From assembly GCA_009923445.1 (NCBI GenBank), contig RFTN01000006.1, forward strand, positions 1 through 45,831: a DNA stretch of 45,831 nucleotides. Reading direction: 5' to 3'. Position numbers and translations under genes: made by a program. This stretch comes from a bacterium. GTDB lineage: Bacteria > Patescibacteriota > Saccharimonadia > Saccharimonadales > SZUA-47. Below, one piece after another: positions 13,373 to 45,831 of this stretch. Within the stretch, counting starts at the first letter, position 1. Every line of letters begins with the position of its first letter. Below the pieces are notes generated by a model that worked only from the letters and a program-made list of their open reading frames with translations, did not search any database and was not told the origin of the DNA.

Positions 13373-13442
13373 CACACGCACATACATCACACACGCGTGT
13401 GTTTATTTAAAACAAACTAAACTACGTAATTAATTGTATGAA

Positions 13443-16217
13443 ATGAGTGCATCTGAAAAGGGGGTAATACAGTATTACTTCAACTTACACAAGGAATATG
13501 CCTCAAAATATGGTGATAGGACGGTGGTGTTGATGCAAATGGGTGCATTTTACGAGATGATGGGTCTTCCAGGAGGGCAATTCGACATTCACAAGGTAGC
13601 AAGTGTAATTAATGTAAATGTAACACGGAGTAATAAAGGGATTCAGGAAGTTTCTCTTAGTAACCCTTATCTTTCTGGATTTCCCCTTGCAAGTTTAAAC
13701 AAGTACACATTGTCACTCATCGACAATGGATACACAGTAGTAGTGGTCGAGCAATCTGATGACAATCCCAAGGCCAGAAAGGTTACTGGAGTTTACTCGC
13801 TTGGAGCAATGCCGCTGGATGTCCTTGACACTAGGAATTGCGTGCTTATGACTGTGATATTTGAACAGGTGATGAGCGTGGTGTGCATAGATGTAGCTAC
13901 AAGTGAAGTAACTGTTTACGAAGTGGAACCAAATCTGGACACTTTAGGTGAGTTGTCAAAGGCACACGACATAACAGAGCTTGTTGTGTTTAGTCGATCA
14001 AACACAGAATCATTTGAAACAGCAATACGCGAATCTATAGATTGCGATTCCATTCACTTCTTAATGGCGAACAATACCGCGGAAAATGTCAATTTTCAAG
14101 ATAGATTTTTTAGACGTGTGTATTCCTGGATCAATTTTGGATTAATCTCACCTGCTGAGTACTTTAACATGGAATATCACCCAACAAGTCTATACAACTG
14201 TGTACTTGCACTTGAATTTCTCGAGAGCCACAATGAACGGTACCTGGTAAATTTGCGTCCGCCTAAGCTAGTACACCAGTCAGATGGAGTGTCCTTGCAG
14301 TTGAATACACTTCACCAGCTTGGCATTTTTGGAGGTCGCAAAAAGACAGATTGTGTATTCAATGTCGTCGATCACACCGTCACTGCTATAGGACGACGTG
14401 AGCTGCGAATGAGGTTGTCTAAACCATTTAAATGCCCCGACGAAATACGCACACGTCTTAATCTATGCGAAGCGTTCGACAAAGATGCGTCTTTTGACTA
14501 TGTAAGAGCCGAATTGTCCAAGACGGTAGATGTGTCTAAACTGCATCGTAAGTTGGCTCTAGGGATTGCAAATATAGGTGACATCCTGTTAATTGCACAA
14601 ACGTATACGCAGGTTATAGATATACTCTCTAAGTTGTCTAATGAAGTTCATGTACAGTTACAAGGGCAATTACAGAAAAACGTACAAACCATTGTGTCAG
14701 AAATACAAACCTTTGTGACACAAATACTAAATGTAATCACGGATGACAAGCATATGCATCCTTTTCATCGAGGTGTGTATCCATACCTTGACAAACTTGC
14801 AAGTGATATCCAGGCTCAATTTGACACACTAACGGGTATACGCAAGGTACTAGAGGATGCCATTGGTCAACCCGATTCAGTAAAACTTGTGTGTACTGAA
14901 TCTGAATACACCTTTACCACGACCAAGATACGAATGGAAATTTTGCGCAAAAAGTTGCCGAAGGAATTCATGGATAAACTACGGATAAAAACTAATTCAA
15001 GTACTGTTAAGATTACTAGCAATGAAATAGAAAGGGTATCAGACACCATCAAAACGTCACGTGCTGTGCTTGACGAATCTGTGCGTCGCGAAACTGGAAC
15101 CCTTGTAGAAAGGCTATACAAAAGTGCAACCCCATTTGCTGATGCAGTTGTAGATACAATAGCATTAATGGACGTTTGTTTGTCAAGTGTTCTGCTCAAG
15201 AGGAAATACAATTACTGTCTACCTCAAATAAGCACGTCAGACAAGGGGTCGGGTATAAGTGTGTCTGGATTAAGACACCCCGTTATCGAGCGTATTTCCA
15301 AGACGATTTATGTACCAGCTGATGTGACATTGGACGAAAATCAGTTTGGGATGATATTGTACGCAATTAACTCCACAGGTAAAAGCAGTTTACTTAGATC
15401 ACTAGGAATCGCTGTGATCCTTGCACAATGCGGCATGTATGTACCCGCATCTGAAATCGTCTTGACCCCTTTTCATACCATCGCGTCCCAGGTAGACATG
15501 CAAGACAATATTATGAAAGGCCAAAGCTCGTTTGTGGCTGAGATGTCCGGTTTGCGCAGGATTGCTGAAGTTGCAGATTCGTATACACTTGTTTTAAGTG
15601 ATGAGCTCACAAAAGGCACAGAACATATTTCTGCAACAAGTATTTTTGCATCAACAGTACTGTTCTTAAAAGACCGGGGAGCAAAATTCCTTTTCACAAC
15701 GCATCTCACAGAAGTCAGTAAATTAGAATGTATTAAAAATTGTCGAGGTCTGCAAATTTGCCATTTAAGCGTGCACATTGACAATGGAAAAATCACTTTT
15801 GAACGCCAACTCCGTGAGGGAGTATGTGATGAACTCTATGGACTTGAAGTGGCCCGTGCGACAGGTGTCAACAAAATGCTTATAGATAAGGCGTTCCAGA
15901 TCCGCAATGGACTAACCCAACGTACTCACAAGCGGGCAAATTCCAGCAAGTATAATGCGAAAAAAATTGTAGAATCATGTGAAATATGCGGACACCGTCC
16001 ACACAATCCCACGCAGAAGGAGCTCGAAACACACCACATCCATTTCCAAAACACGGCAGACACACGAGGCTTTATATCACACTTTCACAAAAATACCTTG
16101 GGAAACTTGGTTGCGTTGTGCCACAAATGTCACTCAGAACTTCATAACGGACAACTTGCAATTCATGGCTACGTTCAAACATCAGATGGAATCAAATTAC
16201 AATGGAATTATGTCTAA
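13443..16217 (+). CDS. mutS7: MutS7-type mismatch repair ATPase with C-terminal HNH endonuclease
   Basis: LMQMGAFYE (domain I), RHPVIE, NSTGKSS, SSFVAEM, DELTKGTE, FTTH, YGLEVA; C-terminal CEIC...ETHHI...NLVALCHKCH. Confidence 0.95.
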   Translation: MSASEKGVIQYYFNLHKEYASKYGDRTVVLMQMGAFYEMMGLPGGQFDIHKVASVINVNVTRSNKGIQEVSLSNPYLSGFPLASLNKYTLSLIDNGYTVVVVEQSDDNPKARKVTGVYSLGAMPLDVLDTRNCVLMTVIFEQVMSVVCIDVATSEVTVYEVEPNLDTLGELSKAHDITELVVFSRSNTESFETAIRESIDCDSIHFLMANNTAENVNFQDRFFRRVYSWINFGLISPAEYFNMEYHPTSLYNCVLALEFLESHNERYLVNLRPPKLVHQSDGVSLQLNTLHQLGIFGGRKKTDCVFNVVDHTVTAIGRRELRMRLSKPFKCPDEIRTRLNLCEAFDKDASFDYVRAELSKTVDVSKLHRKLALGIANIGDILLIAQTYTQVIDILSKLSNEVHVQLQGQLQKNVQTIVSEIQTFVTQILNVITDDKHMHPFHRGVYPYLDKLASDIQAQFDTLTGIRKVLEDAIGQPDSVKLVCTESEYTFTTTKIRMEILRKKLPKEFMDKLRIKTNSSTVKITSNEIERVSDTIKTSRAVLDESVRRETGTLVERLYKSATPFADAVVDTIALMDVCLSSVLLKRKYNYCLPQISTSDKGSGISVSGLRHPVIERISKTIYVPADVTLDENQFGMILYAINSTGKSSLLRSLGIAVILAQCGMYVPASEIVLTPFHTIASQVDMQDNIMKGQSSFVAEMSGLRRIAEVADSYTLVLSDELTKGTEHISATSIFASTVLFLKDRGAKFLFTTHLTEVSKLECIKNCRGLQICHLSVHIDNGKITFERQLREGVCDELYGLEVARATGVNKMLIDKAFQIRNGLTQRTHKRANSSKYNAKKIVESCEICGHRPHNPTQKELETHHIHFQNTADTRGFISHFHKNTLGNLVALCHKCHSELHNGQLAIHGYVQTSDGIKLQWNYV

Positions 16218-17213: not shown

Positions 17214-19460
17214 CTACCATTTGTGATCCTTGTACAGATCCAAGATCTTGTTTTCAAATTCGTCCACAAACTCTGTGTAATTGCAGACGTGTCCATTCAG
17301 GAACTTTTGTCGAACGTTGTGTTTAAGATTTTGTAGACTAGCCATATTTTTCGCCAAGTAAACCGCCCTATTAACATAGTCGTCGTGCGAAAACGTAACG
17401 AATTCCTGCATCCCCGAGTTTTTCATGAGACTTGTTGTGACATTCTGGGAGTGATAGTGCCTGACATTGTCAAACAGCGTTATGATTGGCACGCCCATCA
17501 ACAAGGCTTCGCAACTAGTCGTCGTACCCGAATAGGGAAATGTATCAAGAGCCACATCCATTTTATTATAGTCCAATAGATGTTCATGGTACGTATCTGA
17601 ATAGTTTAACACGGTGATACGTTGAAGAATAGAGCGGTCTGTGAAACTATCCTCAAACTGTTTTTTTAGTTTAGGAGTCAAAAACTCCTTTGTCTTGATG
17701 ACGAATCTTGCATCAGGTATAGCGGCCAACACACGTTCCCAAATAGAAATGACAAGCTTGTTGATTTTGTTATACCTGTTGAAACACCCAAATGTAATGT
17801 ACCCATTTCTTGTACATGGTTGAACAGCCGCCAGTCCAGGTAAATTATTTATTCCCATACCAGGCGTATAAGCCAAAAAGCAATGTTTCATAAAAACAAG
17901 TCGCTCGGTATAGTACTTTTGCGATTTTTCGCTGTCACAAAACGTGTCTGTGATGCGATAATCCATACTCTTGATGCCCGCAGAATTAGGATACCCACAA
18001 TAACTTATTTGAATGGGTGCAGGCTTCAACACAAAAGTGTCCAATCGGTTGTCTCCTGTATGTGCTGACAAATCAAACAAGACATCAATTTTGTCCGCCT
18101 GGATTTTGGCTTTAAAATCTTCAGGAGACATATTCTTGACCACCGCCCACTTGCATTTTGGGTATGTATCATGTAAACTTACTACCTTTACAGAGTAACA
18201 ATGGACATTGAACAAGTCATAATTGATATGACTCAAAATACTGTTTAGGAAATAACTCACAGGATGACAAATAAAATCGCCTGAAACAAATCCAATGTTG
18301 ACCTTTACACCACGTTGAATGAGATCTGCTTTAGATGTAAACGTGAGGAGCTCCGTTTTAGGTTTGTATTCCGGACAGCCCTTGCGGTAATCAGATATCA
18401 CCACTGGATAAATTTTATTAATGTTCTTGTGCAAATTAGCAATGTACATAGGGTCATCAATCAGATGTGAAATGTAATTTGAATCAAGCAACTTGTTCTG
18501 ATACGCAAGCGACAACCTGGGCTTGTACTTGAGCGCCTTGTTGTAACATTCTATGGCACCAATAAAGTCACACTCATAACATTTTGCCAACCCCATATTC
18601 ATGTTCATGCTTGCTGCAAGCATATCAGAATCCACTGAAATGTGCGCCTTGCTGATATTTTTTATACCACGCTCATAATGATAAATTGCCTTGTCCGTGA
18701 AACGAAGTTCTGTGTACACAACAGCCATCTGGTTGTTTATATCAGGATCATCAGGTAAGATCTTGTGCGCAAGGTCAAAGTAATACAATGCCGTATCGCG
18801 ATCCTGAATGCTGTAATACACACTGCCAATACCGTTAAGGCATTTGACCTTGAACTCCTTTAAGGACTTGCGACTCGCCTTTGGATGAAGGAGCAAAGTG
18901 TCAATCAGTCCAATGGCCATTTTGTAGTGAATAATGCTATCTTCCAATTTATTTGCCCGGTGATACAAGAACCCGTAATTGTATTGCACCTGATAGTCAC
19001 ATGGATCCACCATCACTACTTGTCTTAGGTATCCCAAGTTCTCTTCTACATTTGGATTAAACAATGTAAGATACAAGAATACGATTTTATACAGTTCTTT
19101 GGCATCACTATGAAATGGTTCTAGATTCAACACCTTTCTAAGATGTGCAATCGAAATATACAGTGTATTTTTTTCCTGTGCAGTAAGTCCCTTGCGATCC
19201 ATCTGCAATCCAATGGTACGCACTAGTAGCTCAGCACTAATAAAATACACATGTTTAATGATATCCTTGTGACGTTGTGTAACAAATTGATTTTGATCAT
19301 CAAGGAATTTGATCATTTTGGCAGAACGATTGATGCAATCACGATATTTTGCATGATCAATTGTGCCCTTCTTAGTAAAGTCGTTTTGAGCCTCATTGTA
19401 CAGCTTGTCCAAAACCTTGTATTCTTCGAGCAAAGTTTCAATGCTGTTAACCTCGGACAT
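17214..19460 (-). CDS. TPR-containing GT41 glycosyltransferase, SPINDLY/OGT family
   Basis: N-terminal TPRs; catalytic motifs IGFVSGDFICHPVSYF, DLSAHT..NRL..F..KPAPIQISYCGYP, ITFGCFN..NKI, DVALDTFPYSGTTTSCEALLMGVP. Confidence 0.92.
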   Translation of the reverse strand: MSEVNSIETLLEEYKVLDKLYNEAQNDFTKKGTIDHAKYRDCINRSAKMIKFLDDQNQFVTQRHKDIIKHVYFISAELLVRTIGLQMDRKGLTAQEKNTLYISIAHLRKVLNLEPFHSDAKELYKIVFLYLTLFNPNVEENLGYLRQVVMVDPCDYQVQYNYGFLYHRANKLEDSIIHYKMAIGLIDTLLLHPKASRKSLKEFKVKCLNGIGSVYYSIQDRDTALYYFDLAHKILPDDPDINNQMAVVYTELRFTDKAIYHYERGIKNISKAHISVDSDMLAASMNMNMGLAKCYECDFIGAIECYNKALKYKPRLSLAYQNKLLDSNYISHLIDDPMYIANLHKNINKIYPVVISDYRKGCPEYKPKTELLTFTSKADLIQRGVKVNIGFVSGDFICHPVSYFLNSILSHINYDLFNVHCYSVKVVSLHDTYPKCKWAVVKNMSPEDFKAKIQADKIDVLFDLSAHTGDNRLDTFVLKPAPIQISYCGYPNSAGIKSMDYRITDTFCDSEKSQKYYTERLVFMKHCFLAYTPGMGINNLPGLAAVQPCTRNGYITFGCFNRYNKINKLVISIWERVLAAIPDARFVIKTKEFLTPKLKKQFEDSFTDRSILQRITVLNYSDTYHEHLLDYNKMDVALDTFPYSGTTTSCEALLMGVPIITLFDNVRHYHSQNVTTSLMKNSGMQEFVTFSHDDYVNRAVYLAKNMASLQNLKHNVRQKFLNGHVCNYTEFVDEFENKILDLYKDHKW

Positions 19461-19531
19461 TTAATGTAATCAAATGTAATAAATTGGAAAAACTAACGAA
19501 TGCAGAATTTGATTTTGATTGGTAATAATAA

Positions 19532-19987: not shown

Positions 19988-20038
19988 AAAGTTAGTTGAA
20001 TTAAATTGAATTTAATTTACAAAGCGCACGTCTCTACA

Positions 20039-21058
20039 ATGCCCGTGTGTGAAAAGGTCCAGCAGCTACTTAAACGTCCCCAGCCTGTTCAAAGAACACC
20101 CGAATGGTACAAGGCGAGGCAGACTATGATAACAGCAAGTGAAGCAGCAAGTTGTTTGTTTAGGTCAGAGCGTGTGTGCAAACCATATGTAGATCTCTTT
20201 GGACTAACTGGATTCAAATACAAGGACTCAGATCCATTAAACCCTTATGAAAAAAAAAGGGACTACATTATCAAAAAGTGCAGTTTGTTTTATGACGAAT
20301 ATGTGTACAAGGACACCGTGCACACCTTGTGGGGCAAGAAATATGAAGATGCCGCATCTAGACTATACTGTCAATTAACAAACAAGAAATTACTTGAATT
20401 TGGGCTTGTTCCACATGGCTCTCTAAGCTGGCTTGCAGCAAGTCCCGATGGTATTACCGAGGACGGTGTAATGCTTGAGATAAAATGTCCTAAAAGCCGT
20501 AAAATTGATGCCGGCTGCATTCCACTCTACTACTGGGTTCAAGTGCAAATACAACTTGAAGTGTGCGACCTCGAACAATGCGACTTTATAGAATGTGAAA
20601 TAAGGGAGTTTGGAGATTTTACAGAGTTTTGTGAAAGCACTGCTGAACACAAAGGCGTGGCCATTCAACTCCCAGACACTGATTCCGATCCAAAATTTTT
20701 GTACCCAAGTCCCGATGTGCGCACAAATACCGAGTATATACACTGGACAATCGTCAACTTGAAAGCTCTTGGCTCCGCCGCAAAAGAGACATACTATACA
20801 ATAACCAAGTACGTTGTCAGAAGCATCCCTCGGAGTCGAGAATGGTTTAATGCCGTGAAAGACGACATCAAAGGGACATTTGACGTGGTACAAAGCCTCC
20901 AAGGAAACCGAGAGGCTTTTTTGGAATTTAAAAATGAAACGAACAATACAACCTCAGAATACATGAATGAACAGGTGCGTGTTGGTAGATCAAAGACCGG
21001 CGTTCCTGCAGGCAACACAAACAAAAATACGGATTTAGGTGTGTGTATGATTGATTAA
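20039..21058 (+). CDS. YqaJ-like viral recombinase / lambda-type exonuclease
   Basis: QRTPEWY..R..MITASE, WGKKYE, ASPDG, EIKCP, YYWVQVQIQLEV. Confidence 0.93.
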   Translation: MPVCEKVQQLLKRPQPVQRTPEWYKARQTMITASEAASCLFRSERVCKPYVDLFGLTGFKYKDSDPLNPYEKKRDYIIKKCSLFYDEYVYKDTVHTLWGKKYEDAASRLYCQLTNKKLLEFGLVPHGSLSWLAASPDGITEDGVMLEIKCPKSRKIDAGCIPLYYWVQVQIQLEVCDLEQCDFIECEIREFGDFTEFCESTAEHKGVAIQLPDTDSDPKFLYPSPDVRTNTEYIHWTIVNLKALGSAAKETYYTITKYVVRSIPRSREWFNAVKDDIKGTFDVVQSLQGNREAFLEFKNETNNTTSEYMNEQVRVGRSKTGVPAGNTNKNTDLGVCMID

Positions 21059-25962: not shown

Positions 25963-26042
25963 ACTTACATTCAAGTACTAATTTAAATTTCACCTGTTAC
26001 CGTACCCGAGCTAGCGTACGAGTTACGACACCACTTGGAGTA

Positions 26043-34521: not shown

Positions 34522-37500
34522 ATGTCTGGTTTCAACGAGAATGCCATCGTGTACGAGTCGCAGGTGGTCATTAACGGGACATCGGCATCCAGTTCGAGCA
34601 CTGGAGGGCTCATCGTGAGCGGAGGATTGTCGACACGTGATACGTTTGTTAGCGGACATGTGTCGGTGAATCAAGTGAATATCACGCCTAATTTAAATGA
34701 CATTATTTACGAAAAGCAAGCCATCTTATCAAATAGCGTAACGACGTGGACGGACGTAAGCGGATTCCTCTTTGACAACACCATTGCAACCGCGTTCAAG
34801 GCCCATGTTACAGTGAATGTATCTACAGCTGATCCTAAGACGGCTATGTGGGAATTGAACGGTGTGTACCTGAGCAGTGGGTGGACTTTGACATCACGGT
34901 TTACAGGAGACTTGACAGGGGTCAACTTTGCGTTAACGTCTGCAGGTCAAGTTCAATACACAAACACGAACAGCTCTGGTACTACAACAATTAGATACCG
35001 TGCGACGACCAATGCTCCAGCGGGAACAAATCCCCTTAGTTACACAGGAACGGTGCTCCTGAATACGTCTGGGAATTATATTCCCAACAACCTGGTGTAT
35101 GCCAACACGGTTGATACATTGGCCACGACGGATATTACCTACACTTCAGACAAATTTGCAGTAGGAGGCAATTCAGTTGTTGTTATAGATAACGGTAGTA
35201 CATACACTGACGTGTCAAGAGGCGGTGCACTCACGGTAATGGGTGACACGAGTATAGCCAAGACACTTGTAGTCGGTCAGTCTGTAGGTGTTGGAGTGAC
35301 GAGCCCAAGTTACTCTCTGGATGTTTCTGGCGACATCCACTTTACGGGAGAGTTGTATCGCAACGGCGTCCCATTTGTGAGTAGCTTGTGGGGTGCAAAC
35401 GGAAATGATATCTATTACACACGTGGCAGTCTTGGTATCAACACTACCTCTCCGGCTTACACATTAGACGTGGTGGGAACAGCAAGAATCACAGATACCC
35501 TTACCACTGGATCTGTTCTTGCTGGTACTGTAAAAAGCACAGCTGCTACATTGGGCTCAGTCACAGCTACACAGGCGAATTTCACGACATTGTCTGCAGG
35601 AAGTGTCTATGTGACAGGTGACCTCAATGTCCTCTCAAGTGTCAATACAATCAACATGACAGTTGCAAACATGGTCGACACTAACTTGACCGTGTCAAAT
35701 ATCGTTGTTACAGACACGTTGACTGGTGGTTCCTTTGCGGTGTCCAATGCAAATGTATCCCAGTTGTCCACCGGGTCATTAACCTCTCTAAATGCAACTG
35801 TCGGAAGCATAACTAGCACTTCAGTGTCCATTGGCACTCTTTCAGCAATGACTGTAACGTCTGGCAATATAGCTGTTGGAAATGCTACATTATCCAACTT
35901 TGCAGCCGCAAATTTAACATCAGGAAATGTGACTATTACAAACGCAACAGGAACAAATTTAGTAGTAACTGGAAACTTGTCAGCTGGCAATGTATATTCT
36001 ACCGGTATTACTTCAACCAATGTCACAATTACCAATTTGACGTCTGCAAATGTGATCTCCACAAACGCGACAATGACAAACATAAATGTACTGGGCAATA
36101 TGAACGTACCCAATTTGGCCTCAACGAACCTGTCAAGTAGCTCACTCCTCACAACAACCGCCACTATCGGTACCGCGGTATTTGTAAACAGCACACTCAA
36201 CAACATGCAAGCAACAAATGTTACAACAACAAGTCTCTTAACAACAAGTTTGGTGTCTGGTGACATTTCAAGCACAACCGCTACCTCGACAAACATCGTC
36301 TTCACATTTGCTTCAGGAGGAAACTTGTACGTAACGGATGTATCATCCGGGTCCGTGAGCACCACGAATATGACTTCTGGTACATTCGCTGTAAGCAATG
36401 TTACAAGCACGAATATGCAATTCACCAATGCTACTGGAACAAACGTCAATGTAAGCACAGCTACAGCGGGAAGCATTGTCGCCAATACAAGCGTGTCCAC
36501 AGGATCATTTTCTACACGTGATGGCCAATTTACTAATGCAACAGCAACTACAATGATTGTATCGGGAAGTATAACTACTGGCAGTATTGTGGCTACAGGA
36601 AGTGCTACCACAGTTAGTATTACCGCGTCGACCGGTAATTACACAAACGTGACAACTACAAATTTAGTAACAAGCACTGCATCCCTTGGAACACTTGTAG
36701 GAACGGCACTGACAACAGGAACTATTACTGCAACAAATTCTACAGTGACGAATTTAATGTCTACGGCCATTACCTCGGGAAGCATATTTGTTTCTGGTAA
36801 TATTTCTGCAGCCAGTGCATACATCACCACAAGCTTGTCAGCAACAAATGTGTCAACTACTAATGTGTCCTCTACAAACGCCATAGTGACAAATGCAACA
36901 GCTACAAATATCGTTGCAACAAACATTTCTACTGGAACAATCGTGTCCACGAGTGTGTCGACGGCAAATGTGGTGTCTACTAATGCTACTCTTGGTCAAA
37001 TGCAGTTCACGACTGCCACAGGAAATGGACTTGTTTTGTCCACGGGCTTGTCTACAGGCACATTGTTGGCTACAAGTGTAACGGCTGCCAATATCGCTGT
37101 AAACGGAGCAACAGTGTCCAATTTAACAGTTACGAATGTGACAGCATCTAATCTTACATCTACAGGAATTACATCAGGGACTATTCGTGTTACAACTTTA
37201 CTTAGTTCAGCAAATGTCATTGCAACCAATGTTACCTCCACCAATGCCGTTGTCACAACAGGGAGCATTGGAACGCTTGTTAGTACAAATGTGACATCAC
37301 AAAATGTGTCTACACTTAATTTCACATCTGGTAGTGCAAATATCCTTAATGCCACAATGTCCAATGCCACTGTTACAAATATGACCTCAACAAATGTGAA
37401 TGTATCTAATGGTATTACATCCGGTGTGTTATTTGCGACATCGGGTACCTTTAGCACGGTGACTACAACTCAACTTACTGCTACAAACATCACCGCAACA

Positions 37501-40500
37501 AACATCAGTCTTTCTGGAAGCATCCAAACAACCACGGTCACATCCACAAACGCGACAACTGTAAATCTTCAATCCACAAACGCGTCAATTGGCTCGCTGA
37601 CTGTGTCCACGGCATTGGCAGCAACCGGAAATAGCAACACATTGGGAAATATTTTCACAACAGGAGGGAATGTGGGTGTTGCAACAACCAGTCCAAGTTT
37701 CACTCTTGATGTGTCTGGATCAGCACGCTTTAGCGTAGGATTTACCACAGGAACCCTTGCAGCCAATACATCCGTATCAACAGGTTCCCTTGCAACAGGA
37801 ACTTTGACAAGTGGTAATGCACTGATTACATCGATGTCAGTGTCTACATTAAATGCTTCAACAGTGACCACTGGATCTCTTGTCGCCACAAACGTAACAA
37901 CTGGAAGTATGACAGCATCCAATGTCATTGCAAGTAACATCACAAGTGCCACATTGAACTTGACTACTGGTATGACAGCAGGCTCACTTCAGGTTGCAAA
38001 CTTGACAAGCACTGGAAATCTTCAAGCTACACAAGCAACCGTTACAAACGCTATTGTAAGCACTTTTAGCGCAAGCACGCTTGTCATCACGGGCTCAATG
38101 ACCGTTGGATCAAATTTGTCTTCAAATGTCATTTCAGCTGGAAGTATTTCAACGCCAAGTGCAACGACGACGAATCTGATCATTACTAATGCAACAACGT
38201 CTCAAATTGTAGCGACAAATATCACTTCCAGTACTTTGGTGTCAACAAATGTGTCTACATCTAATGTTACAACTACCAATGCCACGGCAACGAATCTTGT
38301 ATTCACAAATGCCACAGGAGCAACATTGACATTGACAACAGGCTTGACAGCAGGCACGGTTTCAGCAATTGCTTCTATTTCTACAGGCGCGTTGTCGGCG
38401 ACAACAAGCACTATTTCGAATATCAATTTCATAAATGCCACTGGTGGAAGCATTGTTCTTTCTGGAAGTATTACTGCGGGGTCATTTGTTGCAACCAATG
38501 TAACTTCAACAAACGTCAGCGCTACGAATGTAACATCAACAAATGCAGTGATTACAAATGCAACGGCTACCAATTTGAACTTGACGACGGGCCTTACAAC
38601 AGCGACGTTATCTGCTACAAACAGCACACTTACGAACGTCATTGCGTCTAATGCCACATTCACAAATGCATTGTTTACGAATGCCACAGGGACGAATTTG
38701 GTCTTAACAAATTTGACATCAAGCAATTTGACGGCTACAAACATCTCAACAGGATCCCTAAATGCTACTAATGCAACGGTGCCCAATGTTGTTTTTACAA
38801 ATGTAAGTGCGGGTGCTTTGAACATCTCTTCGAGCTTGACAGTGTCAAGCGTGTCAACGGGAAGTTTGACTGCTACAAATCATACTTCTACAAACGTCTT
38901 AGTATCAAACATTACCACAAACAACTTGCAAGTCACAAGTACCTTGACAGTGCCTACGTTGTTGGCTTCTACACGTATTACAACAAGCAATGTGTCCACG
39001 TCTTCAGCAACTATTGGTAATGTAGTTGTTACCAACGTGACCGCTGGAACTCTAGTAGCGACGACAGGTGTGACTGCAGGAGTGTTGTTTTCTACTCTTG
39101 GTTCATTTTCGACGGTTACTTCTACATTGTTATCGGCTACTACATTGACGGGCGGAAACATTAGTTTATCTGGTAATTTGGTGGTTGCGGGCACACTTAC
39201 TACGGTCAATGTGACTACTACAAATTTGCTTGACACAAATGTCTCTGCTGGATCGATGCGCGTCACATCGTCGCTTAGTGCGCTTGGAAACAGCAATACA
39301 ATTGGCAGCATTTTCACGACTGGTGGTAATGTGGGCATTGGTACCACGAGCCCCGCCTATAGACTCGATGTCTCAGGTACTGCACGATTCGCCACAGGGC
39401 TTACGACAGGTACACTTGCAGCAAATACAAGCGTGTCATCGGCCAATGTAGCGGCAAACGCGGGTACATTTGGAAGTATTCTGGCTACGAATGTGTCTGC
39501 AAGCACATTAAATGTGACGAATGTGACTACAGGATCGATCCTAGCTACAACGGGTGTGTCCACGGGAACACTTACAGCTACAAACGTCACAGCAACAGGC
39601 GTCACAGCAAGCAATGTACTTGTGACCAATGCCCTTACTGCAGGTAACATTGTGGCTACTACGAGCACTTCTACGGGCAATTTAGCAGCTGGAAATTTGA
39701 CCGTAGGTAGCATTCGAGCTACAACAAGTGTCACAGCAGCAACATTACTAGCAACAACTGGGGTAACAGCAGGCGCATTGAATGTTACATCAACGTTTAC
39801 AGCTCCTTCTGCAATTTTCTCCAATGCTACTGTGACATCCCTGTTTGTCACTAATATTACATCTGCTGGTATTTTTACAACATCCGGTACACTTGGTTCC
39901 GTTACCTCTACAAATGTGACCACTTCGACAATGTTGTCAACCAATGCAACGACAACCAATTTGCAATTTACGGCTGCAACGGGAAGCAATTTGGTGATGA
40001 CAAATGTGACTACAGGTACGCTTAGTGCGACGACGAGTGTCAGTGCTGCCAATGTTGCAGGAGCAAACACAACTACGACTAATCTAGTATTTACCAATGC
40101 AACAGGAACAACATTGACGCTTACTACACTTTCTGCAGGAACGCTAGTGGCCACAACAAGTGTTAGCACAGGCGCGCTTACGGCATCACAAGCCACGATT
40201 GGAAATGTACAAGTTACGGGTGGAGTGACAACTGGATCGATTACGTCGACCACGGCAACAGTGACGTCTTTAGTTGCGTCTACGAATGTGTCCTCAAACA
40301 ATGTGACAGCCACCAATGTCACAAGCACCAACTTAAATGTGACCAATGTGACAAGCACCAATGTGTATGCTACAAATGTGACGTCAAGCACGCTATTGGC
40401 CACGACAAGTGTGAGTACGGCCAATCTTCTTGCCACCAATGCGACATTCCAGAACGTGATTGCAACCAATTTGACGGGATCGAATATTGTAGCAACATCA

Positions 40501-43500
40501 GGTTTTACAACAGGTACGTTACTTGCGTCTACAAGCGTGTCAACCGGAGCTTTCTCGAGCACATCAGCGACGGTAACCAATGCAGTGTTTTCGTCCGGCG
40601 GAACCATTGGTACATTGAATGCCACCGCGATGACGGTTGGAAACATCAACTTTACGGGAACTTTGTCCCAAAACGGTGCGCCATATGTGTCTTCGCAATG
40701 GACGACGGGCAGTGCAGGCAATCTCACATACACTGCAGGAAATGTGGGTATCAATACGACCAATCCACAATTCACGTTGGATGTCAATGGATCGGCGCGT
40801 ATTTCGTCAGGTATTACGGTGAGCAACTTGAACTTTACAGGAAGTTTGTATCAAAATGGTGTTCCATACAGTGCTACGTCACAATGGAGCGACGTGACGG
40901 GTGGCATTGCATACACTGCAGGGAATGTAGGTATTGGAACATCGAGCCCTAGTTACACACTGGATGTGTCTGGAGGCGCCCGTGTGACGGGAAATATAAC
41001 TGCAAGCAACATCGCGTTGCAAAGTTACATCAACAGCTATGGAAACATGGTTTTTAGCACATCAAACAGCACAGCTGTGACGACAAATGTGCGTACAATG
41101 GCAAATCGAATGCGCACGAGCCGAGCCAATGCAACAGCAGCGGTTTCAACATGGACTACACGAGCCAATCCTAGTCCTTTTGATCCATATTTCACATGTG
41201 TCACATGGTCTCCTGAATTGGGGCTTTTTGTTGCATCCGCCGTTAATGGTACTGGACAAGACATTATTTACTCATCAAATGGTGTAAACTGGACTGGTGT
41301 AAATACAAGTGGTGTCAATTTGGACAGAGTTGTTTGGGCAGCTGAGTTGGGTCTTTTTGTTATTGTAGGAAGCATGGGAATAGGAATGACATCTTCCACG
41401 GGTACTACATACACAACTGTTAGCATACCGTCACAAAATTGGGCTGGTATAACATGGAGTCCAGAGTTGTCCCTTCTTGTAGCTGTGGCCAATTCCGGAA
41501 CAGGCAATCGTGTGATGACATCCCCAGACGGTACCACGTGGACGACACAAAGAAGTGCTGCAGACAACTCTTGGTATGGAGTTACATGGAGTCCAGAATT
41601 GGGGATATTTGTGGCTGTGGCGGGTTCAGGTACAGGCAATCGTGTCATGACATCTCCAGATGGTATTAATTGGACTACACAAACAAGCGCAGCAGACAAC
41701 ATATGGAACAGTGTAGTGTGGTCAAGTGAGCTTGCTCTTTTTGTTGCAGTGGGTAGTTCTGGAACAGGTAATCGCGTGATGACCAGTCCAGACGGTATTA
41801 CGTGGACGACACGTACGAGCGCTGCAGATAATAGTTGGTATTGGGTCACTTGGAGTCCTGAACTGTCACTGTTCGTAGCTGTGGCAACTTCAGGCACAGG
41901 CAATGGTGTAATGACCAGTTCGGACGCAATAACATGGACCACACGTGCAAGTGCAGTAGACAATCAATGGAGAAGTGTGTGCTGGAGTCCTGAGCTGTCC
42001 ATCTTTGTTGCTGTTTCATATTCAGGAACGGGCAATCGGGTGATGACCTCTCGAATCGCATTGCCCTCGAGCAAGTCTGTGCCATTGGTGTCTCCTGCAT
42101 ATCTTACAGTCACCGATGGCAATTTGAACTTGGCGGGTAATTTGACCGTTGGCACGCTTGTGCTTACAACGGGACTTACAGTGAGTTCATTGGCTGTGAC
42201 ATCCTCGTTGAGTACGGGTACAATGAATGCAACGAATGCTACTGTAACCAATGCTGTGGTGACAAACGTTTCAGCTGGCAATATTGTTATTGGTACGGGA
42301 GCGACGCTAGGAAACGTCCTTGCCACGACAAGTGTGAGCACGGCCAATTTGGCAGCCAGCACAATTACCTCAGCCAATTTACTTGGAACATCCTTGACGG
42401 CAGGTACACTTGTAAGTACAAATGCCACCCTTGCAAATGTGACTACGACGAATTTAGTGGCGACTGTTATTACAGGAGGTACATTAAACTTGTCAGGAAA
42501 CCTGACGGTGTCAGGCACACTTACCATTACAAATTTGACCACAACCAACTTGGTAGACACAAATTTGTCCGTGGGAACGATGTATGTGAGCTCTGGATTG
42601 ACAGTGGTAGGATCATCCAATACAATAGGCAATATCTTTTTCACTGGAGGTAATATTGGTATCAATACAACAAGCCCTGCGTACACATTGGATGTTTCGG
42701 GAACGGGAGCATTTACAAATGTACTTGCGACAAATGTGAGTGCAAGTAACGCAACAGTGACAAATATGCTGGCAACGAATGTCACATTGTCGAATTTAAG
42801 CTTGTCCAATTTCACAGTTGGTTCGTTTGTTGGAACAAATATCAGCACATCTAGTTTGACATCTACAAATGCAACAACTTCAAATGTACAGGCGACTAGC
42901 GTTACAGCAACCAATTTACTAGTTACTACTGGTTTTACATCTGGGGCACTTGCAGTGACAGGGACATTGACTGCGGGATCCATTGTGTCTACGAGCGGTA
43001 CATTTACAAATGTGACAACGGACAGTCTGTTTGCAAATTCAGTTACAACTGGTAATGTGGTTGCTACAAACGTCACCAGTACAAATTTACAAGCTACGGA
43101 AACAAGCATCGGAAGTGCATTGTTGACAGGAATGACGGCAACCAATCTGACGGTGACCACAGGCTTTACAGCTGGCACAGTGCTTGTAAACAGCATTACG
43201 TCAAGCAATGGACAGTTCACAAATGTTACCATAGCAAATGTTCTTGCAACTAACGTGAGCTCTACGAATATCGTTGTTTCGGGTAATATGACGACAGGAC
43301 TCCTTACAGTCACATCTGCATTGTCTACGGGTTCAATTGTGGGAGCAAACGCCCAATTTACTACTTCGACAGTGACAAATTTGACCCTTACAAATATGAC
43401 GGCAAGTTCCTTAGTAACCAACTCTGCGACACTTACGGGAATTAACAGCACTACGGGTACACTTGGCAATGTACTTTTTACAAACGCTACGGGAACATCA

Positions 43501-45831
43501 CTGGTCACGTCTGATGCGACAATTGGCAATGTGTATCTTCTAAATATCACAGCAGGTGCATTGTACTCCTCCACAGGTACATTCACAAATGTGACTGCGA
43601 CAAACATTGTGTCTACAACAGGTACATTTGGTACACTACTTGCAACCAATGTGACAGGATCAAACGGCTTGTTTACAAATGCAACCTTGAGTAATTTCTT
43701 AATGAACAATGTGACAGTAGGATCTGCATTGGTTTTAGCAACAGGTCTAACGGCAGCAAACGTGAATATTACAGGAGGCTTGTACCAGAATGGTGCACTT
43801 GTTTTCACCGGATGGACTGCGAATACTGCAGGAAATGTGTGGTATACAGGTGGCAATGTGGGTATTCGCACAACTGCACCGCAATTTGCATTGGACGTGT
43901 CGGGTGGCGCACGCATCACGGGTGGTCTCACAGTGGGCAATCTCAATTACACAGGGACGCTGACGGTGAATGGTGTGGCTGTATCGGGATCTCCATTTGC
44001 TACAGTAACAGGAGGCATTGCTTACACAAGTGGTAATGTGGGTATTGGAACGACCAGTCCAAGTGTTACGTTAGATGTGTCTGGAGGTGTGCGTGTGACA
44101 GGAAATATAACTGCAGGCAATCTCGTTGTGCAAAACTACATCAATACTTATGGAAACATGGTCTATAGTACGTCCAATAGCACAGCGGTTACTACAAATA
44201 TGCGAACACTTGCTAATAGAATGCGTACAAGTCGTGCCAATGCGGCTGCTACGGTATCACAGTGGCAAACACGCAGCAACGCCATAGACAACAATTGGAC
44301 GGGGATCGCTTGGAGTCCAGAATTGGGGTTGCTTGTGGCTGTGTCTAATACAGGCACTGGTAATCGTGTGATGACTTCACCTGATGGAATAAATTGGACG
44401 ACTCGTGTCAGCGCGGTAGACAACGATTGGAGTAGCGTAGTATGGGCAGCTGAATTGTCATTGTTTGTTGCAGTGTCCTCGACTGGTACAGGAAATCGTG
44501 TAATGACCAGTCCAGATGGTATTACGTGGACTACTCGTGCAAGTGCTGTGGACAATAATTGGACTAGTGTGACATGGTCTAGTGACTTGTCGCTTTTCGT
44601 GGCAGTATCTTCTACAGGTACAGGAAACGGTGTGATGACCAGTCCGGACGGTATTACGTGGACAACTAGAGCAAGTGCGGCAAACAATTCATGGAACACA
44701 GTGACGTGGAGTCCGGAATTGTCCCTTTTCGTGGCGGTGTCGACGAGCGGCGCTGGTAATAGAGTGATGACCAGTCCCGATGGTTTTGTGTGGACTACAC
44801 GTGCAAGTGCGGTAGACAATTCATGGAACAGTGTAGTGTGGTCAGGTGAACTTGGCATTTTTGTGGCGGTGTCTTCTGGAGGCACTGGCAACAATGTGAT
44901 GACATCGAGTGAAGGTATTACATGGACTACACGTGCAAGTGCAGCAAACAACTCGTGGAACAGTGTAGTGTGGTCTAATGAACTTTCCATGTTCGTGGCT
45001 GTTTCATCTACCGGTACGGGCAATTGTGTGATGACCTCGAGTGACGGTGTCACGTGGACAACCCGTGCAAGCGCTGCGGACAATGGATGGCAAAGCGTAG
45101 CGTGGGTCCCAGAGTTGTCAAGGTTTGTTGCGGTGTCGAGCACGGGTACAGGTACGCGTGTCATGACTTCGCAGATTGCGCTTCCAGCAAGCAAATCGAC
45201 ATTGTTGGTATCACCTGCGTACTTGACGGCAACAGACGGAACATTGAATCTAACGGGCACACTCAATGTCACGACGATGTCGGCTGCAAATTTGAGTGCA
45301 ACGAATGTTACGGTGTCATCGCTGTCTGCTGTAACCATTACCTCAAGCAACATCCTGGCTACTAATGCGACCATTACGAACTTGCTATTTACGAATTTAA
45401 CAACAAGTAACTTGACATTAACAAGTTTAACTGCTGCAAATTTAATTATCACAAACAATATCAACAGTTACGGAAACGTGGTGAATTCTACGACCAACAG
45501 TACGGCGATTTCTACAAATGTTCGTGTGCTCTCTAACCGCATCCGCACAAGTCGGGCTAATGTGGCCTCCGCGGTAAGCACATGGACTACGCGCGCCAGT
45601 GCAGTGGATAACAGTTGGAATTCCGTTGTGTGGAGTCCGGAATTATCCCTTTTTGTAGCAGTGTCCTCTGGCGGAACAGGCAATAATGTGATGACCAGTC
45701 CTGATGGAATTACGTGGACGACACGTGCAAGTGCTGCAAACAACAATTGGGCCGAAATGGCGTGGGCTCCAGAATTGTCCATTTTCGTGGCAGTATCTAC
45801 CAGCGGTGCAGGCAATCGTGTGATGACCAGT
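34522..45831 (+). CDS. Giant (at least 3770 aa, 3'-truncated) Thr/Ser/Asn-rich fibre/adhesin-like protein with beta-propeller modules
   Basis: ATG 34522 (MSGFNENAIVYESQ...) stays in frame to the last codon. The ORF track lists no stop-terminated ORF in this frame. Contains nine G(N/S)(V/I/L)G(I/V)xTxxPx(Y/F)xLDVxG-like motifs, TNVT/TNAT-type repeats and WSPELxLFVAV...GNRVMTSPDGITW repeats. Confidence 0.92.
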   Translation, partial: MSGFNENAIVYESQVVINGTSASSSSTGGLIVSGGLSTRDTFVSGHVSVNQVNITPNLNDIIYEKQAILSNSVTTWTDVSGFLFDNTIATAFKAHVTVNVSTADPKTAMWELNGVYLSSGWTLTSRFTGDLTGVNFALTSAGQVQYTNTNSSGTTTIRYRATTNAPAGTNPLSYTGTVLLNTSGNYIPNNLVYANTVDTLATTDITYTSDKFAVGGNSVVVIDNGSTYTDVSRGGALTVMGDTSIAKTLVVGQSVGVGVTSPSYSLDVSGDIHFTGELYRNGVPFVSSLWGANGNDIYYTRGSLGINTTSPAYTLDVVGTARITDTLTTGSVLAGTVKSTAATLGSVTATQANFTTLSAGSVYVTGDLNVLSSVNTINMTVANMVDTNLTVSNIVVTDTLTGGSFAVSNANVSQLSTGSLTSLNATVGSITSTSVSIGTLSAMTVTSGNIAVGNATLSNFAAANLTSGNVTITNATGTNLVVTGNLSAGNVYSTGITSTNVTITNLTSANVISTNATMTNINVLGNMNVPNLASTNLSSSSLLTTTATIGTAVFVNSTLNNMQATNVTTTSLLTTSLVSGDISSTTATSTNIVFTFASGGNLYVTDVSSGSVSTTNMTSGTFAVSNVTSTNMQFTNATGTNVNVSTATAGSIVANTSVSTGSFSTRDGQFTNATATTMIVSGSITTGSIVATGSATTVSITASTGNYTNVTTTNLVTSTASLGTLVGTALTTGTITATNSTVTNLMSTAITSGSIFVSGNISAASAYITTSLSATNVSTTNVSSTNAIVTNATATNIVATNISTGTIVSTSVSTANVVSTNATLGQMQFTTATGNGLVLSTGLSTGTLLATSVTAANIAVNGATVSNLTVTNVTASNLTSTGITSGTIRVTTLLSSANVIATNVTSTNAVVTTGSIGTLVSTNVTSQNVSTLNFTSGSANILNATMSNATVTNMTSTNVNVSNGITSGVLFATSGTFSTVTTTQLTATNITATNISLSGSIQTTTVTSTNATTVNLQSTNASIGSLTVSTALAATGNSNTLGNIFTTGGNVGVATTSPSFTLDVSGSARFSVGFTTGTLAANTSVSTGSLATGTLTSGNALITSMSVSTLNASTVTTGSLVATNVTTGSMTASNVIASNITSATLNLTTGMTAGSLQVANLTSTGNLQATQATVTNAIVSTFSASTLVITGSMTVGSNLSSNVISAGSISTPSATTTNLIITNATTSQIVATNITSSTLVSTNVSTSNVTTTNATATNLVFTNATGATLTLTTGLTAGTVSAIASISTGALSATTSTISNINFINATGGSIVLSGSITAGSFVATNVTSTNVSATNVTSTNAVITNATATNLNLTTGLTTATLSATNSTLTNVIASNATFTNALFTNATGTNLVLTNLTSSNLTATNISTGSLNATNATVPNVVFTNVSAGALNISSSLTVSSVSTGSLTATNHTSTNVLVSNITTNNLQVTSTLTVPTLLASTRITTSNVSTSSATIGNVVVTNVTAGTLVATTGVTAGVLFSTLGSFSTVTSTLLSATTLTGGNISLSGNLVVAGTLTTVNVTTTNLLDTNVSAGSMRVTSSLSALGNSNTIGSIFTTGGNVGIGTTSPAYRLDVSGTARFATGLTTGTLAANTSVSSANVAANAGTFGSILATNVSASTLNVTNVTTGSILATTGVSTGTLTATNVTATGVTASNVLVTNALTAGNIVATTSTSTGNLAAGNLTVGSIRATTSVTAATLLATTGVTAGALNVTSTFTAPSAIFSNATVTSLFVTNITSAGIFTTSGTLGSVTSTNVTTSTMLSTNATTTNLQFTAATGSNLVMTNVTTGTLSATTSVSAANVAGANTTTTNLVFTNATGTTLTLTTLSAGTLVATTSVSTGALTASQATIGNVQVTGGVTTGSITSTTATVTSLVASTNVSSNNVTATNVTSTNLNVTNVTSTNVYATNVTSSTLLATTSVSTANLLATNATFQNVIATNLTGSNIVATSGFTTGTLLASTSVSTGAFSSTSATVTNAVFSSGGTIGTLNATAMTVGNINFTGTLSQNGAPYVSSQWTTGSAGNLTYTAGNVGINTTNPQFTLDVNGSARISSGITVSNLNFTGSLYQNGVPYSATSQWSDVTGGIAYTAGNVGIGTSSPSYTLDVSGGARVTGNITASNIALQSYINSYGNMVFSTSNSTAVTTNVRTMANRMRTSRANATAAVSTWTTRANPSPFDPYFTCVTWSPELGLFVASAVNGTGQDIIYSSNGVNWTGVNTSGVNLDRVVWAAELGLFVIVGSMGIGMTSSTGTTYTTVSIPSQNWAGITWSPELSLLVAVANSGTGNRVMTSPDGTTWTTQRSAADNSWYGVTWSPELGIFVAVAGSGTGNRVMTSPDGINWTTQTSAADNIWNSVVWSSELALFVAVGSSGTGNRVMTSPDGITWTTRTSAADNSWYWVTWSPELSLFVAVATSGTGNGVMTSSDAITWTTRASAVDNQWRSVCWSPELSIFVAVSYSGTGNRVMTSRIALPSSKSVPLVSPAYLTVTDGNLNLAGNLTVGTLVLTTGLTVSSLAVTSSLSTGTMNATNATVTNAVVTNVSAGNIVIGTGATLGNVLATTSVSTANLAASTITSANLLGTSLTAGTLVSTNATLANVTTTNLVATVITGGTLNLSGNLTVSGTLTITNLTTTNLVDTNLSVGTMYVSSGLTVVGSSNTIGNIFFTGGNIGINTTSPAYTLDVSGTGAFTNVLATNVSASNATVTNMLATNVTLSNLSLSNFTVGSFVGTNISTSSLTSTNATTSNVQATSVTATNLLVTTGFTSGALAVTGTLTAGSIVSTSGTFTNVTTDSLFANSVTTGNVVATNVTSTNLQATETSIGSALLTGMTATNLTVTTGFTAGTVLVNSITSSNGQFTNVTIANVLATNVSSTNIVVSGNMTTGLLTVTSALSTGSIVGANAQFTTSTVTNLTLTNMTASSLVTNSATLTGINSTTGTLGNVLFTNATGTSLVTSDATIGNVYLLNITAGALYSSTGTFTNVTATNIVSTTGTFGTLLATNVTGSNGLFTNATLSNFLMNNVTVGSALVLATGLTAANVNITGGLYQNGALVFTGWTANTAGNVWYTGGNVGIRTTAPQFALDVSGGARITGGLTVGNLNYTGTLTVNGVAVSGSPFATVTGGIAYTSGNVGIGTTSPSVTLDVSGGVRVTGNITAGNLVVQNYINTYGNMVYSTSNSTAVTTNMRTLANRMRTSRANAAATVSQWQTRSNAIDNNWTGIAWSPELGLLVAVSNTGTGNRVMTSPDGINWTTRVSAVDNDWSSVVWAAELSLFVAVSSTGTGNRVMTSPDGITWTTRASAVDNNWTSVTWSSDLSLFVAVSSTGTGNGVMTSPDGITWTTRASAANNSWNTVTWSPELSLFVAVSTSGAGNRVMTSPDGFVWTTRASAVDNSWNSVVWSGELGIFVAVSSGGTGNNVMTSSEGITWTTRASAANNSWNSVVWSNELSMFVAVSSTGTGNCVMTSSDGVTWTTRASAADNGWQSVAWVPELSRFVAVSSTGTGTRVMTSQIALPASKSTLLVSPAYLTATDGTLNLTGTLNVTTMSAANLSATNVTVSSLSAVTITSSNILATNATITNLLFTNLTTSNLTLTSLTAANLIITNNINSYGNVVNSTTNSTAISTNVRVLSNRIRTSRANVASAVSTWTTRASAVDNSWNSVVWSPELSLFVAVSSGGTGNNVMTSPDGITWTTRASAANNNWAEMAWAPELSIFVAVSTSGAGNRVMTS
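41152..42060 (+). repeat. Propeller module 1: seven ~44 aa WSPEL/SPDG repeats
   Basis: Seven copies counted; the first two are divergent. Confidence 0.85.
44263..45180 (+). repeat. Propeller module 2: seven 44 aa (132 bp) WSPEL/SPDG repeats
   Basis: Seven copies counted. Confidence 0.88.
45583..45831 (+). repeat. Propeller module 3 (truncated by window end)
   Basis: Same leader peptide and two repeat copies before the edge. Confidence 0.8.

Follow-up and report, generated by a model that had tools for sequence, protein, structure and literature searches.

What does a GT41 glycosyltransferase gene do among giant-virus genes, and which proteins would its product modify? The gene (P0001) lies at positions 17214..19460, on the minus strand, of the window, by which we mean the whole stretch of DNA analysed: one entire 45,831-bp contig (C123) of an assembly that is filed as a prokaryote genome (G000; 1.8 Mb, 177 contigs, completeness 98.97, contamination 3.51). 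It is complete from ATG to stop codon, with 748 open codons, and encodes a 748-aa glycosyltransferase of the SPINDLY (SPY) type with tetratricopeptide repeats (TPRs). A sequence-only reading of the window had proposed that this enzyme may glycosylate a giant, sequon-dense fibre-like protein of the same contig independently of the endoplasmic reticulum (ER), or else rewire SPY/OGT signalling in the host. The analysis presented here places the gene in a giant virus and the enzyme beside Arabidopsis SPY. We give an even chance to the view that it is an active cytoplasmic Ser/Thr O-glycosyltransferase of a freshwater giant virus, which would use a GDP-sugar and act on conserved targets of the host or the viral factory rather than on the fibre specifically.

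A SPY-type enzyme in sequence and fold

Two stretches of the protein match Glyco_transf_41 (PF13844; E 2.5e-37, 128.8 bits against a cut-off of 25) in a Pfam search, a match also returned by a whole-genome family search, and the Pfam models TPR_2 (45.5 bits, cut-off 27) and TPR_1 (37.9 bits, cut-off 27.8) are matched as well. From these TPR matches and a structural model, residues 1-330 (18471..19460, minus strand) constitute an all-helical, TPR-like superhelix of 15 helices, or about seven hairpins, and alignments place a GT-B catalytic domain at residues 380-748 (17217..18323, minus strand). The model, made with AlphaFold2 from 46 aligned relatives (pLDDT 92.8, pTM 0.82), has its 15 helices within residues 7-329, followed by a two-lobed alpha/beta domain.

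Arabidopsis SPY (AtSPY) is a nucleocytoplasmic protein O-fucosyltransferase that itself belongs to GT41. It is also the best match of the viral enzyme in both sequence and fold (7Y4I, 8DTF-8DTI). In a phmmer search of PDB sequences, AtSPY is the best solved relative (7y4i; E 9.2e-78, query residues 206-744), with 265 bits for the full-length protein and 250 bits for the catalytic domain alone. The Thermobaculum terrenum “OGT” (TtOGT; 5DJS), a bacterial SPY-like GT41 enzyme, is second with 194 bits in either search, followed by human O-GlcNAc transferase (hOGT; 105 and 96 bits) and Xanthomonas OGT (XcOGT; 80 and 82 bits). The distant GT41 enzymes HMW1C and NGT (3Q3E, 8J30) give marginal matches only (22 bits, E 4e-4 at full length; 21 bits, E 1.1e-3 to 1.3e-3 for the catalytic domain). 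Foldseek orders the PDB in a similar way: AtSPY chains fill ranks 1-8 (E 4.8e-41 to 1.0e-38, TMq 0.68-0.72), TtOGT comes next at rank 9 (TMt 0.86), the hOGT chains begin at rank 10 (about 1e-27), XcOGT follows at rank 45, and no HMW1C chain is among the matches listed, which extend to rank 50 with gaps.

Like AtSPY, the viral protein combines a TPR superhelix and a GT-B domain without the intervening domain of OGT. At that position, 135 residues of the hOGT chain (389-523) face 23 residues of the query, and positions ~230-367 of the Pfam Glyco_transf_41 profile are unmatched in the viral protein. AtSPY has eleven TPRs; the virus-encoded protein is about 26% identical to it over the structural alignment and has a first 200 residues without sequence match to SPY. 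No close named viral relative emerged from a fold search of BFVD, in which the matches were generic GT-B proteins (best E 2.9e-8, TMq 0.33) and a Hyperionvirus protein named SPINDLY stood at rank 38.

Both sequence score and fold rank place the viral enzyme nearer to SPY than to OGT/SEC or HMW1C. Together with the diagnostic residues described below, they make it SPY-type rather than OGT- or HMW1C-type, and the intact, SPY-like TPR and GT41 enzyme seen in the sequence-only reading is borne out.

Active-site residues and the predicted donor

The viral sequence was mapped through phmmer alignments onto the AtSPY residues described in PMC9715652 and PMC10027727. The essential lysine, K665, corresponds to K565, the required histidine, H495, to H399, and the threonines T747 and T748, which contact sugar and nucleotide, to T646 and T647. 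H728, which stacks on the base, is retained as H627, the ribose-binding E752 as E651, and L439 (H498 in hOGT) as L325; D395 and T648 are also among the mapped residues of the viral catalytic domain. Four asparagines of the ladder that lines the TPR lumen are kept as well (N333 as N209, N367 as N243, N402 as N288 and N436 as N322). Among the residues required for catalysis in AtSPY, K665, H495, Y744 and T748 are therefore all represented in the virus (K565, H399, Y643, T647), and S496, which contacts both fucose and acceptor, is replaced by P400.

The SPY-like clan of GT41 is distinguished from the OGT clan by the signature K689/A731/Y744, against L866/R904/C917 in OGT, and an “intermediate” group with mixed patterns has been described (PMC10027727). 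In the viral triad, K589/D630/Y643, the guanine-binding lysine and the sugar-gating tyrosine are of the SPY type, and the third residue is of neither type. TtOGT shares with the viral enzyme a C-H-P motif and the sugar-gate tyrosine, but it has Ile, Leu and Thr at the positions of the guanine lysine, the base-stacking histidine and A731, where the virus has Lys, His and Asp, two of the three as in plant SPY. The mapped key residues are invariant across 25 orthologues, and H627, K565, K589 and Y643 are also invariant in 46 more diverse sequences. Because K589 and Y643 are kept, the donor is predicted to be a GDP-linked sugar of about the size of fucose and not UDP-GlcNAc.

A conserved gene of giant viruses

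A Pfam search of the window's open reading frames (ORFs) revealed hallmark genes of nucleocytoplasmic large DNA viruses (NCLDVs) on both sides of the GT41 gene. A MutS7-type mismatch repair gene (13434..16217, plus strand; MutS_V, MutS_III and MutS_I) lies on one side, and on the other are a YqaJ-type exonuclease gene (20006..21058, plus strand; YqaJ E 6.3e-16), a kinesin-like 977-aa ORF (21103-24036, plus strand; motor domain 46.1 bits, cut-off 29.3), an NCLDV major capsid protein (MCP) gene (24772-25974; Capsid_N and Capsid_NCLDV) and a D5-type primase-helicase ORF (30460-33291). Genes for TFIIS and an asparagine synthase (AsnS) are also present. Because it carries MCP, MutS7, D5 primase and TFIIS, the contig is giant-virus DNA that was binned into a mixed “prokaryote” assembly, and the viral origin claimed for the GT41 gene from the sequence alone is correct. 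From the MutS7 and AsnS genes, this freshwater giant virus is inferred to be Imitervirales-like. In a search of sequencing runs, two DNA runs from lake or freshwater metagenomes emerged as its possible source, and no RNA run was listed.

The gene is widespread. A word-seeded search returned 662 homologous proteins at E <= 1e-10, and each of the best 120 of these has 65-85% identity across 95-100% of the length, their contigs reaching 506 kb; the GT41 family as a whole is very large, with 32,411 representatives at E <= 0.001 in an exhaustive representative search. A single-protein scan of a collection of viral contigs gave no loci, and an alignment-based scan of the collection gave 73, made up of 65 orthologous loci (53-70% identity) and a group of 8 paralogous ones (37-40%). 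The surroundings are conserved too. Among the 65 orthologous loci, YqaJ lies within 10 kb of GT41 in 62, MutS7 in 39, a kinesin-like gene in 37 and an MCP copy in 18, and these counts are lower bounds, as many flanks end at contig ends. The GT41 gene is thus part of a conserved MutS7-GT41-YqaJ block.

None of the other genes compared within these loci is as conserved as GT41, whose median identity is 66%, against 52% for the MCP copy, 51% for D5, 50% for YqaJ, 50% for AAA, 39% for the kinesin-like gene, 36% for AsnS and 33% for MutS7. The difference holds locus by locus: GT41 is the more conserved partner in 37/37 pairs with MutS7, 62/62 with YqaJ and 17/17 with the MCP copy. GT41 evolves more slowly than each neighbour compared, the MCP copy included.

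A bipartite, AT-rich element recurs in front of the GT41 orthologues. Its strict form, CGTTAAAAA-N3-6-AATTTAAAAC, occurs 23 times on both strands of the 65 orthologous loci (1.16 Mb), and all 23 occurrences are directly upstream of GT41 and on the GT41 strand. Once redundant sequences are set aside, 32 of the 48 upstream regions contain a relaxed form, in most cases some 45 nt ahead of the ATG. The element is specific to the GT41 gene. The window has a degenerate copy, CGTTA-N8-AATTTA (19480..19498, minus strand), which starts at 19498, 38 nt before the GT41 ATG. The window shows no enrichment of the early promoter word of the mimivirus type, AAAATTGA (9 occurrences against 6.0 +/- 2.6 expected).

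Two further GT41 genes reside in the same assembly, both on contig C156 (L007 and L008), bringing its total to three. One encodes a 717-aa TPR form that is 41% identical to the window's enzyme, the other a 551-aa form (29-30%) without TPR matches and without an equivalent of His399. Both match AtSPY best, and HMW1C is not listed for either at E <= 0.01. Contig C156 is viral-looking as well, with UvdE, a PIF1 helicase, ligases, a metacaspase and two GT32-type glycosyltransferases, and it further carries a GH130-like ORF, a gametolysin-type M11 peptidase and a VWD-domain protein.

Elsewhere in the assembly, bacterial-looking contigs such as C58, which encodes a Wzt ABC transporter, WsaF and DUF2142, are mixed with NCLDV contigs. 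The latter probably come from at least two related viruses, because the D5 primase of NCLDV-like contig C3 is 54% identical to that of the window and NCLDV capsid genes are present on two contigs. On C3, the D5 primase adjoins a TnpB or Cas12f-like transposon nuclease ORF (L096; 18330-19262, minus strand) with OrfB_IS605 and Cas12f1-like TNB domains.

Proposed function

In the mechanism proposed here, the TPR lumen of the viral enzyme, lined with asparagines, would grip the backbone of an extended, unfolded peptide, and the GT-B domain would pass a single sugar from its nucleotide-bound donor to the hydroxyl of a Ser or Thr, probably in the cytoplasm or the viral factory of the infected cell. 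The targets may be a set of conserved host proteins, viral-factory proteins or both, with Ser/Thr-rich disordered segments, and not specifically the variable fibre. A broad set is suggested because the gene evolves more slowly than its neighbours and because SPY and OGT are many-substrate enzymes. Of the ER-independent self-glycosylation put forward in the sequence-only reading, protein glycosylation in the cytoplasm is the part that comes naturally to an enzyme of this kind, and the choice of the fibre as its specific target is the part that lacks support.

Autonomous glycosylation in chloroviruses and mimiviruses offers a parallel, being virus-encoded, ER-independent and located in the cytoplasm or viral factory. 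Chloroviruses carry the viral GDP-fucose pathway genes GMD and GMER. In the present assembly, a GDP-mannose 4,6-dehydratase (GMD) gene occurs on contig C3, scoring 407 bits, just below the 415-bit equivalog cut-off, and about 1.5 kb from it is a GDP-fucose-synthase-like (Fcl-like) gene (163 bits, cut-off 500). An Fcl-like gene adjoins GMD in two of six viral GMD loci, and one 288.8-kb viral contig, accounting for just one of the six, holds GT41 (L022), GMD (L103) and a fibre homologue (L115). This amounts to weak evidence, and a lead, for a viral supply of GDP-fucose to the enzyme.

Several observations weigh against the function proposed here. P400 stands in place of S496, as in TtOGT and hOGT, and mutation of S496 lowers the activity of AtSPY (PMC9715652). 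D630 is neither the alanine of SPY nor the arginine of OGT, and the pyrophosphate-binding N662 is replaced by R562, so the donor could be another GDP-sugar or something else. In the superhelix, with its seven or so hairpins in place of eleven, two ladder asparagines and an arginine that contact substrate are changed (N334 to G210, N368 to Q244, R408 to C294), and K231 and D266, which select substrates in AtSPY, fall outside the aligned region, as does N300. TtOGT, which combines the C-H-P motif with the tyrosine, is reported to be without O-GlcNAc activity in vitro (PMC9715652), and it illustrates that a close fold is no proof of a known activity. The step from high conservation to many substrates is one of analogy. 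Finally, contig C3 with its GMD gene probably belongs to the second virus of the bin, since its D5 primase is so far from that of the window.

The fibre-like protein

The supposed substrate is encoded by a fibre-like ORF (P0002; 34522..45831, plus strand) with 3770 open codons and a 3′ end that lies beyond the contig, giving a protein of at least 3770 aa. It is rich in Thr (21%), Ser (13.7%), Asn (10.3%) and Val (10.6%) and contains 175 N-x(not P)-S/T sequons, exactly eight of them in the 64 codons at 35881-36072, in accord with the size, Ser/Thr richness and sequon density first noted for it. Its first 50 residues lack a hydrophobic stretch (highest 12-residue Kyte-Doolittle mean 0.98, a simple calculation rather than a signal-peptide predictor).

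Residues 1-330 (34522..35511, plus strand) form an N-terminal domain, delimited by alignment and by tblastn within the assembly. It is shared with paralogues on contigs C108, C25, C94, C69 and C112 of the bin, has homologues in 21 viral loci and has no sequence match in Pfam, PHROGs or the PDB. Downstream are Thr/Ser/Asn-rich tracts with a period of five residues and the consensus T-N-[VLAI]-T-x (35512..40671, plus strand), which hold 106 of the 175 sequons (5.9-6.6 per 100 aa) and are interrupted by GNVGIxTTxP...LDVxG motifs; there are eight GNVGIxTTxP and nine LDVxG motifs. A first repeat module follows (40882..42201, plus strand), recognised as an internal repeat and marked by motifs such as WSPELxLFVAV and MTSPDGxxWT, and then a second period-5 tract, also rich in Thr, Ser and Asn (residues 2571-3130; 42232..43911, plus strand; 32 sequons). 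Self-matches in tblastn located a second module, 66% identical to the first, and the beginning of a third that the contig truncates (43996..45831, plus strand). The three modules appear to be beta-propeller-like, to judge from their sequence; the first has a weak MotY_N match in Pfam and no sequence match in the PDB.

Asn recurs in all four tracts with an autocorrelation of 0.33-0.45 at lag 5 and of 0.24-0.36 at lag 10. This strict five-residue period, in which a hydrophobic residue comes after Asn, is reminiscent of pentapeptide-repeat beta-helices, but the Pfam pentapeptide models PF00805 and PF13599 do not match the tracts (E 5.7 and 7.7; both score 7.1 bits, where the cut-offs are 20.2 and 38). 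Pieces of the fibre had no usable match among PDB sequences (E 0.035 and 0.092 at best), hit only PHROG families without a known function and gave only insignificant matches in Pfam to E 10, and AlphaFold2 without an alignment did not obtain a fold for residues 331-730 (pLDDT 44.8). A homologue (P0122; 2469 aa, N-terminal domain 52% identical) ends in a Peptidase_S74 intramolecular chaperone domain of the kind found in phage tail fibres and tailspikes, and this points to a trimeric, tail-fibre-like protein, although the corresponding C terminus of the window's ORF lies beyond the contig.

Short contigs of the bin (C108, C109, C151, C177, C53 and C100) bear fibre-like pieces with repeat tracts and propeller-like modules that are 54-71% identical. 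Either there are several copies of the fibre family or the repeats broke the assembly, and one of these contigs may continue the ORF of the window. On the strand opposite the fibre (35607-45830, minus strand), long ORFs of up to 660 aa are most likely empty frames that result from the repetitive, stop-poor composition.

The fibre as a possible substrate

Could the enzyme O-glycosylate this Thr/Ser-rich protein in the cytoplasm, before it folds and trimerises, to give virions an ER-free glycan coat? Of the alternatives to a broad target set, this one survives best, and even so we consider it unlikely. In its favour, 35% of the fibre is Ser or Thr, and SPY targets poly-Ser/Thr in unstructured regions (PMC9715652); giant viruses are moreover known to glycosylate fibres and capsids with their own enzymes (PMC9614988, PMC4691112). 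The period-5 tracts, though, suggest folded beta structure rather than the disorder preferred by SPY, bearing in mind that the fold itself was not obtained.

The genomic evidence is similarly divided. When co-occurrence was scored by the contig and MAG (metagenome-assembled genome) names of the viral loci, 13 of the 21 loci with a fibre N-terminal domain had a name that also carries GT41, 5 of them on the same contig, and the one searchable viral record with a GT41 orthologue (G001) also contains N-terminal domain repeats. In one locus (L055), a 1463-aa fibre homologue precedes GT41 on its strand by about 830 bp. Co-occurrence of the two families, as anticipated in the sequence-only reading, is therefore real, but it does not establish a specific link, because it would be expected anyway of any two genes that are common in one clade. 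Close linkage is moreover the exception. L055 is the only one of 73 loci with a clear fibre homologue within +/-10 kb of GT41, four more having weak partial matches; in the window the two genes are 15 kb apart, and on the four shared contigs measured they lie about 16, 46, 49 and 211 kb from each other. The fibre is also the less conserved partner, its N-terminal domain being 48-54% identical in the 18 closest loci against the median of 66% for GT41, and this gap fits a broad-substrate enzyme better than a fibre-specific one. Adjacency, spacing and conservation all speak against the proposed pairing of enzyme and fibre, which is best regarded as a weak, testable hypothesis.

A more ambitious version extends the fibre idea to the whole clade of freshwater giant viruses, which would possess their own nucleocytoplasmic O-fucosylation system and coat the period-5 tracts with O-linked deoxyhexose before folding. 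Its parts would be one or two SPY-type transferases (the orthologue and the paralogue group at 37-41% identity), viral GDP-fucose synthesis in some members and the dedicated upstream control element. We hold this to be quite improbable; if true, it would stand beside the HMW1C-adhesin system as its O-linked, ER-independent equivalent and be the first viral use of SPY chemistry.

A second Ser/Thr-rich protein is encoded at the other end of the window. The 356-aa ORF P0287 (2826-3896, minus strand) is 37% Ser plus Thr, has very basic repeats such as SSKRRSTKRK in its C-terminal half and has no Pfam match. It is protamine- or SR-like in appearance and probably disordered, and it would be a classic kind of target for an enzyme that modifies Ser and Thr.

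Other possible activities for the enzyme

Automatic annotation offers a different activity, in that homologues are named “protein O-GlcNAc transferase” or [quoted passage not shown]. A true O-GlcNAc transferase, using UDP-GlcNAc, would be consistent with the plan that the viral enzyme shares with human and Drosophila OGT as a member of the same family (TPR plus GT-B, with a His-Pro pair in the N-terminal catalytic lobe), and the H399-P400 pair is indeed like hOGT and unlike AtSPY. It is nonetheless a remote prospect. Y643 occupies the position of hOGT Cys917, where a tyrosine clashes with the N-acetyl group (PMC9715652, PMC10027727), K589 replaces Leu866, and there is no arginine at the position of Arg904. 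The intervening domain characteristic of OGT is missing, hOGT scores far below SPY (105 against 265 bits) and comes after it in fold rank, and the names carry little weight, having once been wrongly applied to SPY itself (PMC10027727).

The sequons of the fibre had suggested yet another activity, transfer to asparagine. HMW1C enzymes are GT41 members that modify a beta-helical adhesin before export, glycosylating this large surface protein in the cytoplasm at N-x-S/T, and the viral enzyme might by analogy N-glycosylate the fibre. At 4.64 per 100 aa, sequons are five times as dense in the fibre as in the 24 other ORFs of the window pooled (0.92 per 100 aa; 91 in 9885 aa). When the fibre was shuffled within 100-aa windows, composition alone predicted 136.2 +/- 8.6 sequons and none of 2000 shuffles reached 175 (maximum 166, z 4.5). 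N-x-T in particular is enriched (132 observed, 83 expected, z 6.6). Density does exceed that of composition-shuffled controls, as the glycosylation idea would have it, and the excess is real but only 1.3-fold.

That excess arises from the five-residue repeat (T-N-hydrophobic-T-x) of a protein rich in Thr, Ser and Asn. Motifs unrelated to glycosylation deviate as strongly ([ST]N, z +4.3; [ST]xxN, z +5.4; N[ST], z -9.1), 143 of the 175 sequons are N-hydrophobic-S/T, and 88 of the 174 spacings between successive sequons are multiples of five. The third position ahead of Asn is Ser or Thr about as often (57%) as the second position behind it (54%), the two being the same register of the repeat, and N-x-S is not enriched (43 observed, 53 expected). 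Nor is the enzyme of the Asn-modifying type, as far as its sequence indicates, SPY-type enzymes being modifiers of Ser and Thr. HMW1C and NGT match it marginally (22 bits, against 265 for SPY) and are absent from the fold matches listed, and the viral enzyme has SPY-type residues and a TPR domain; we know of no TPR domain in HMW1C or NGT enzymes. We judge N-glycosylation of the fibre by this enzyme to be very improbable, and the argument from the sequons is explained away by the repeat.

The weakest alternative, that the gene is of bacterial origin, through contamination or mis-binning, takes its appeal from the filing of the assembly as a prokaryote genome with contigs such as C58, from labels of “[bacterium]” or “[Proteobacteria bacterium]” on some homologues and from the abundance of SPY-like GT41 enzymes in bacteria, and it is already refuted, unless the contig is a chimeric assembly, by the MCP, MutS7, D5 primase-helicase, TFIIS and YqaJ genes around GT41 on the same 45.8 kb and by relatives with the same neighbours at 73 loci of the viral collection, which leaves it next to no probability.

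Implications for giant viruses

A term search of the 2022 review of giant-virus glycans (PMC9614988), in the text available from it, found “GT41”, “TPR”, “OGT”, “tetratricopeptide” and “family 41” 0 times each. Among the sources returned by a literature search, in the parts accessible, no paper analyses viral GT41 enzymes, and GT41 appears only in the CAZy-family list of a virome preprint. Automatic annotations already assign such proteins to the SPINDLY family or call them O-GlcNAc transferases.

That SPY-type enzymes O-fucosylate proteins of the nucleus and cytoplasm was recognised only recently, and this modification has so far been described as a form of cellular regulation in plants, algae and protists. 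Here, a large group of giant viruses encodes the same type of enzyme in a conserved gene. This gene widens the set of virus-encoded glycosylation tools beyond the current review literature and provides a concrete candidate enzyme. Because GT41 changes more slowly than every neighbour with which it was compared, the major capsid protein copy among them, its conservation suggests that these viruses rely on changing how proteins are glycosylated in infected cells, be it those of the host, those of the virus or both.

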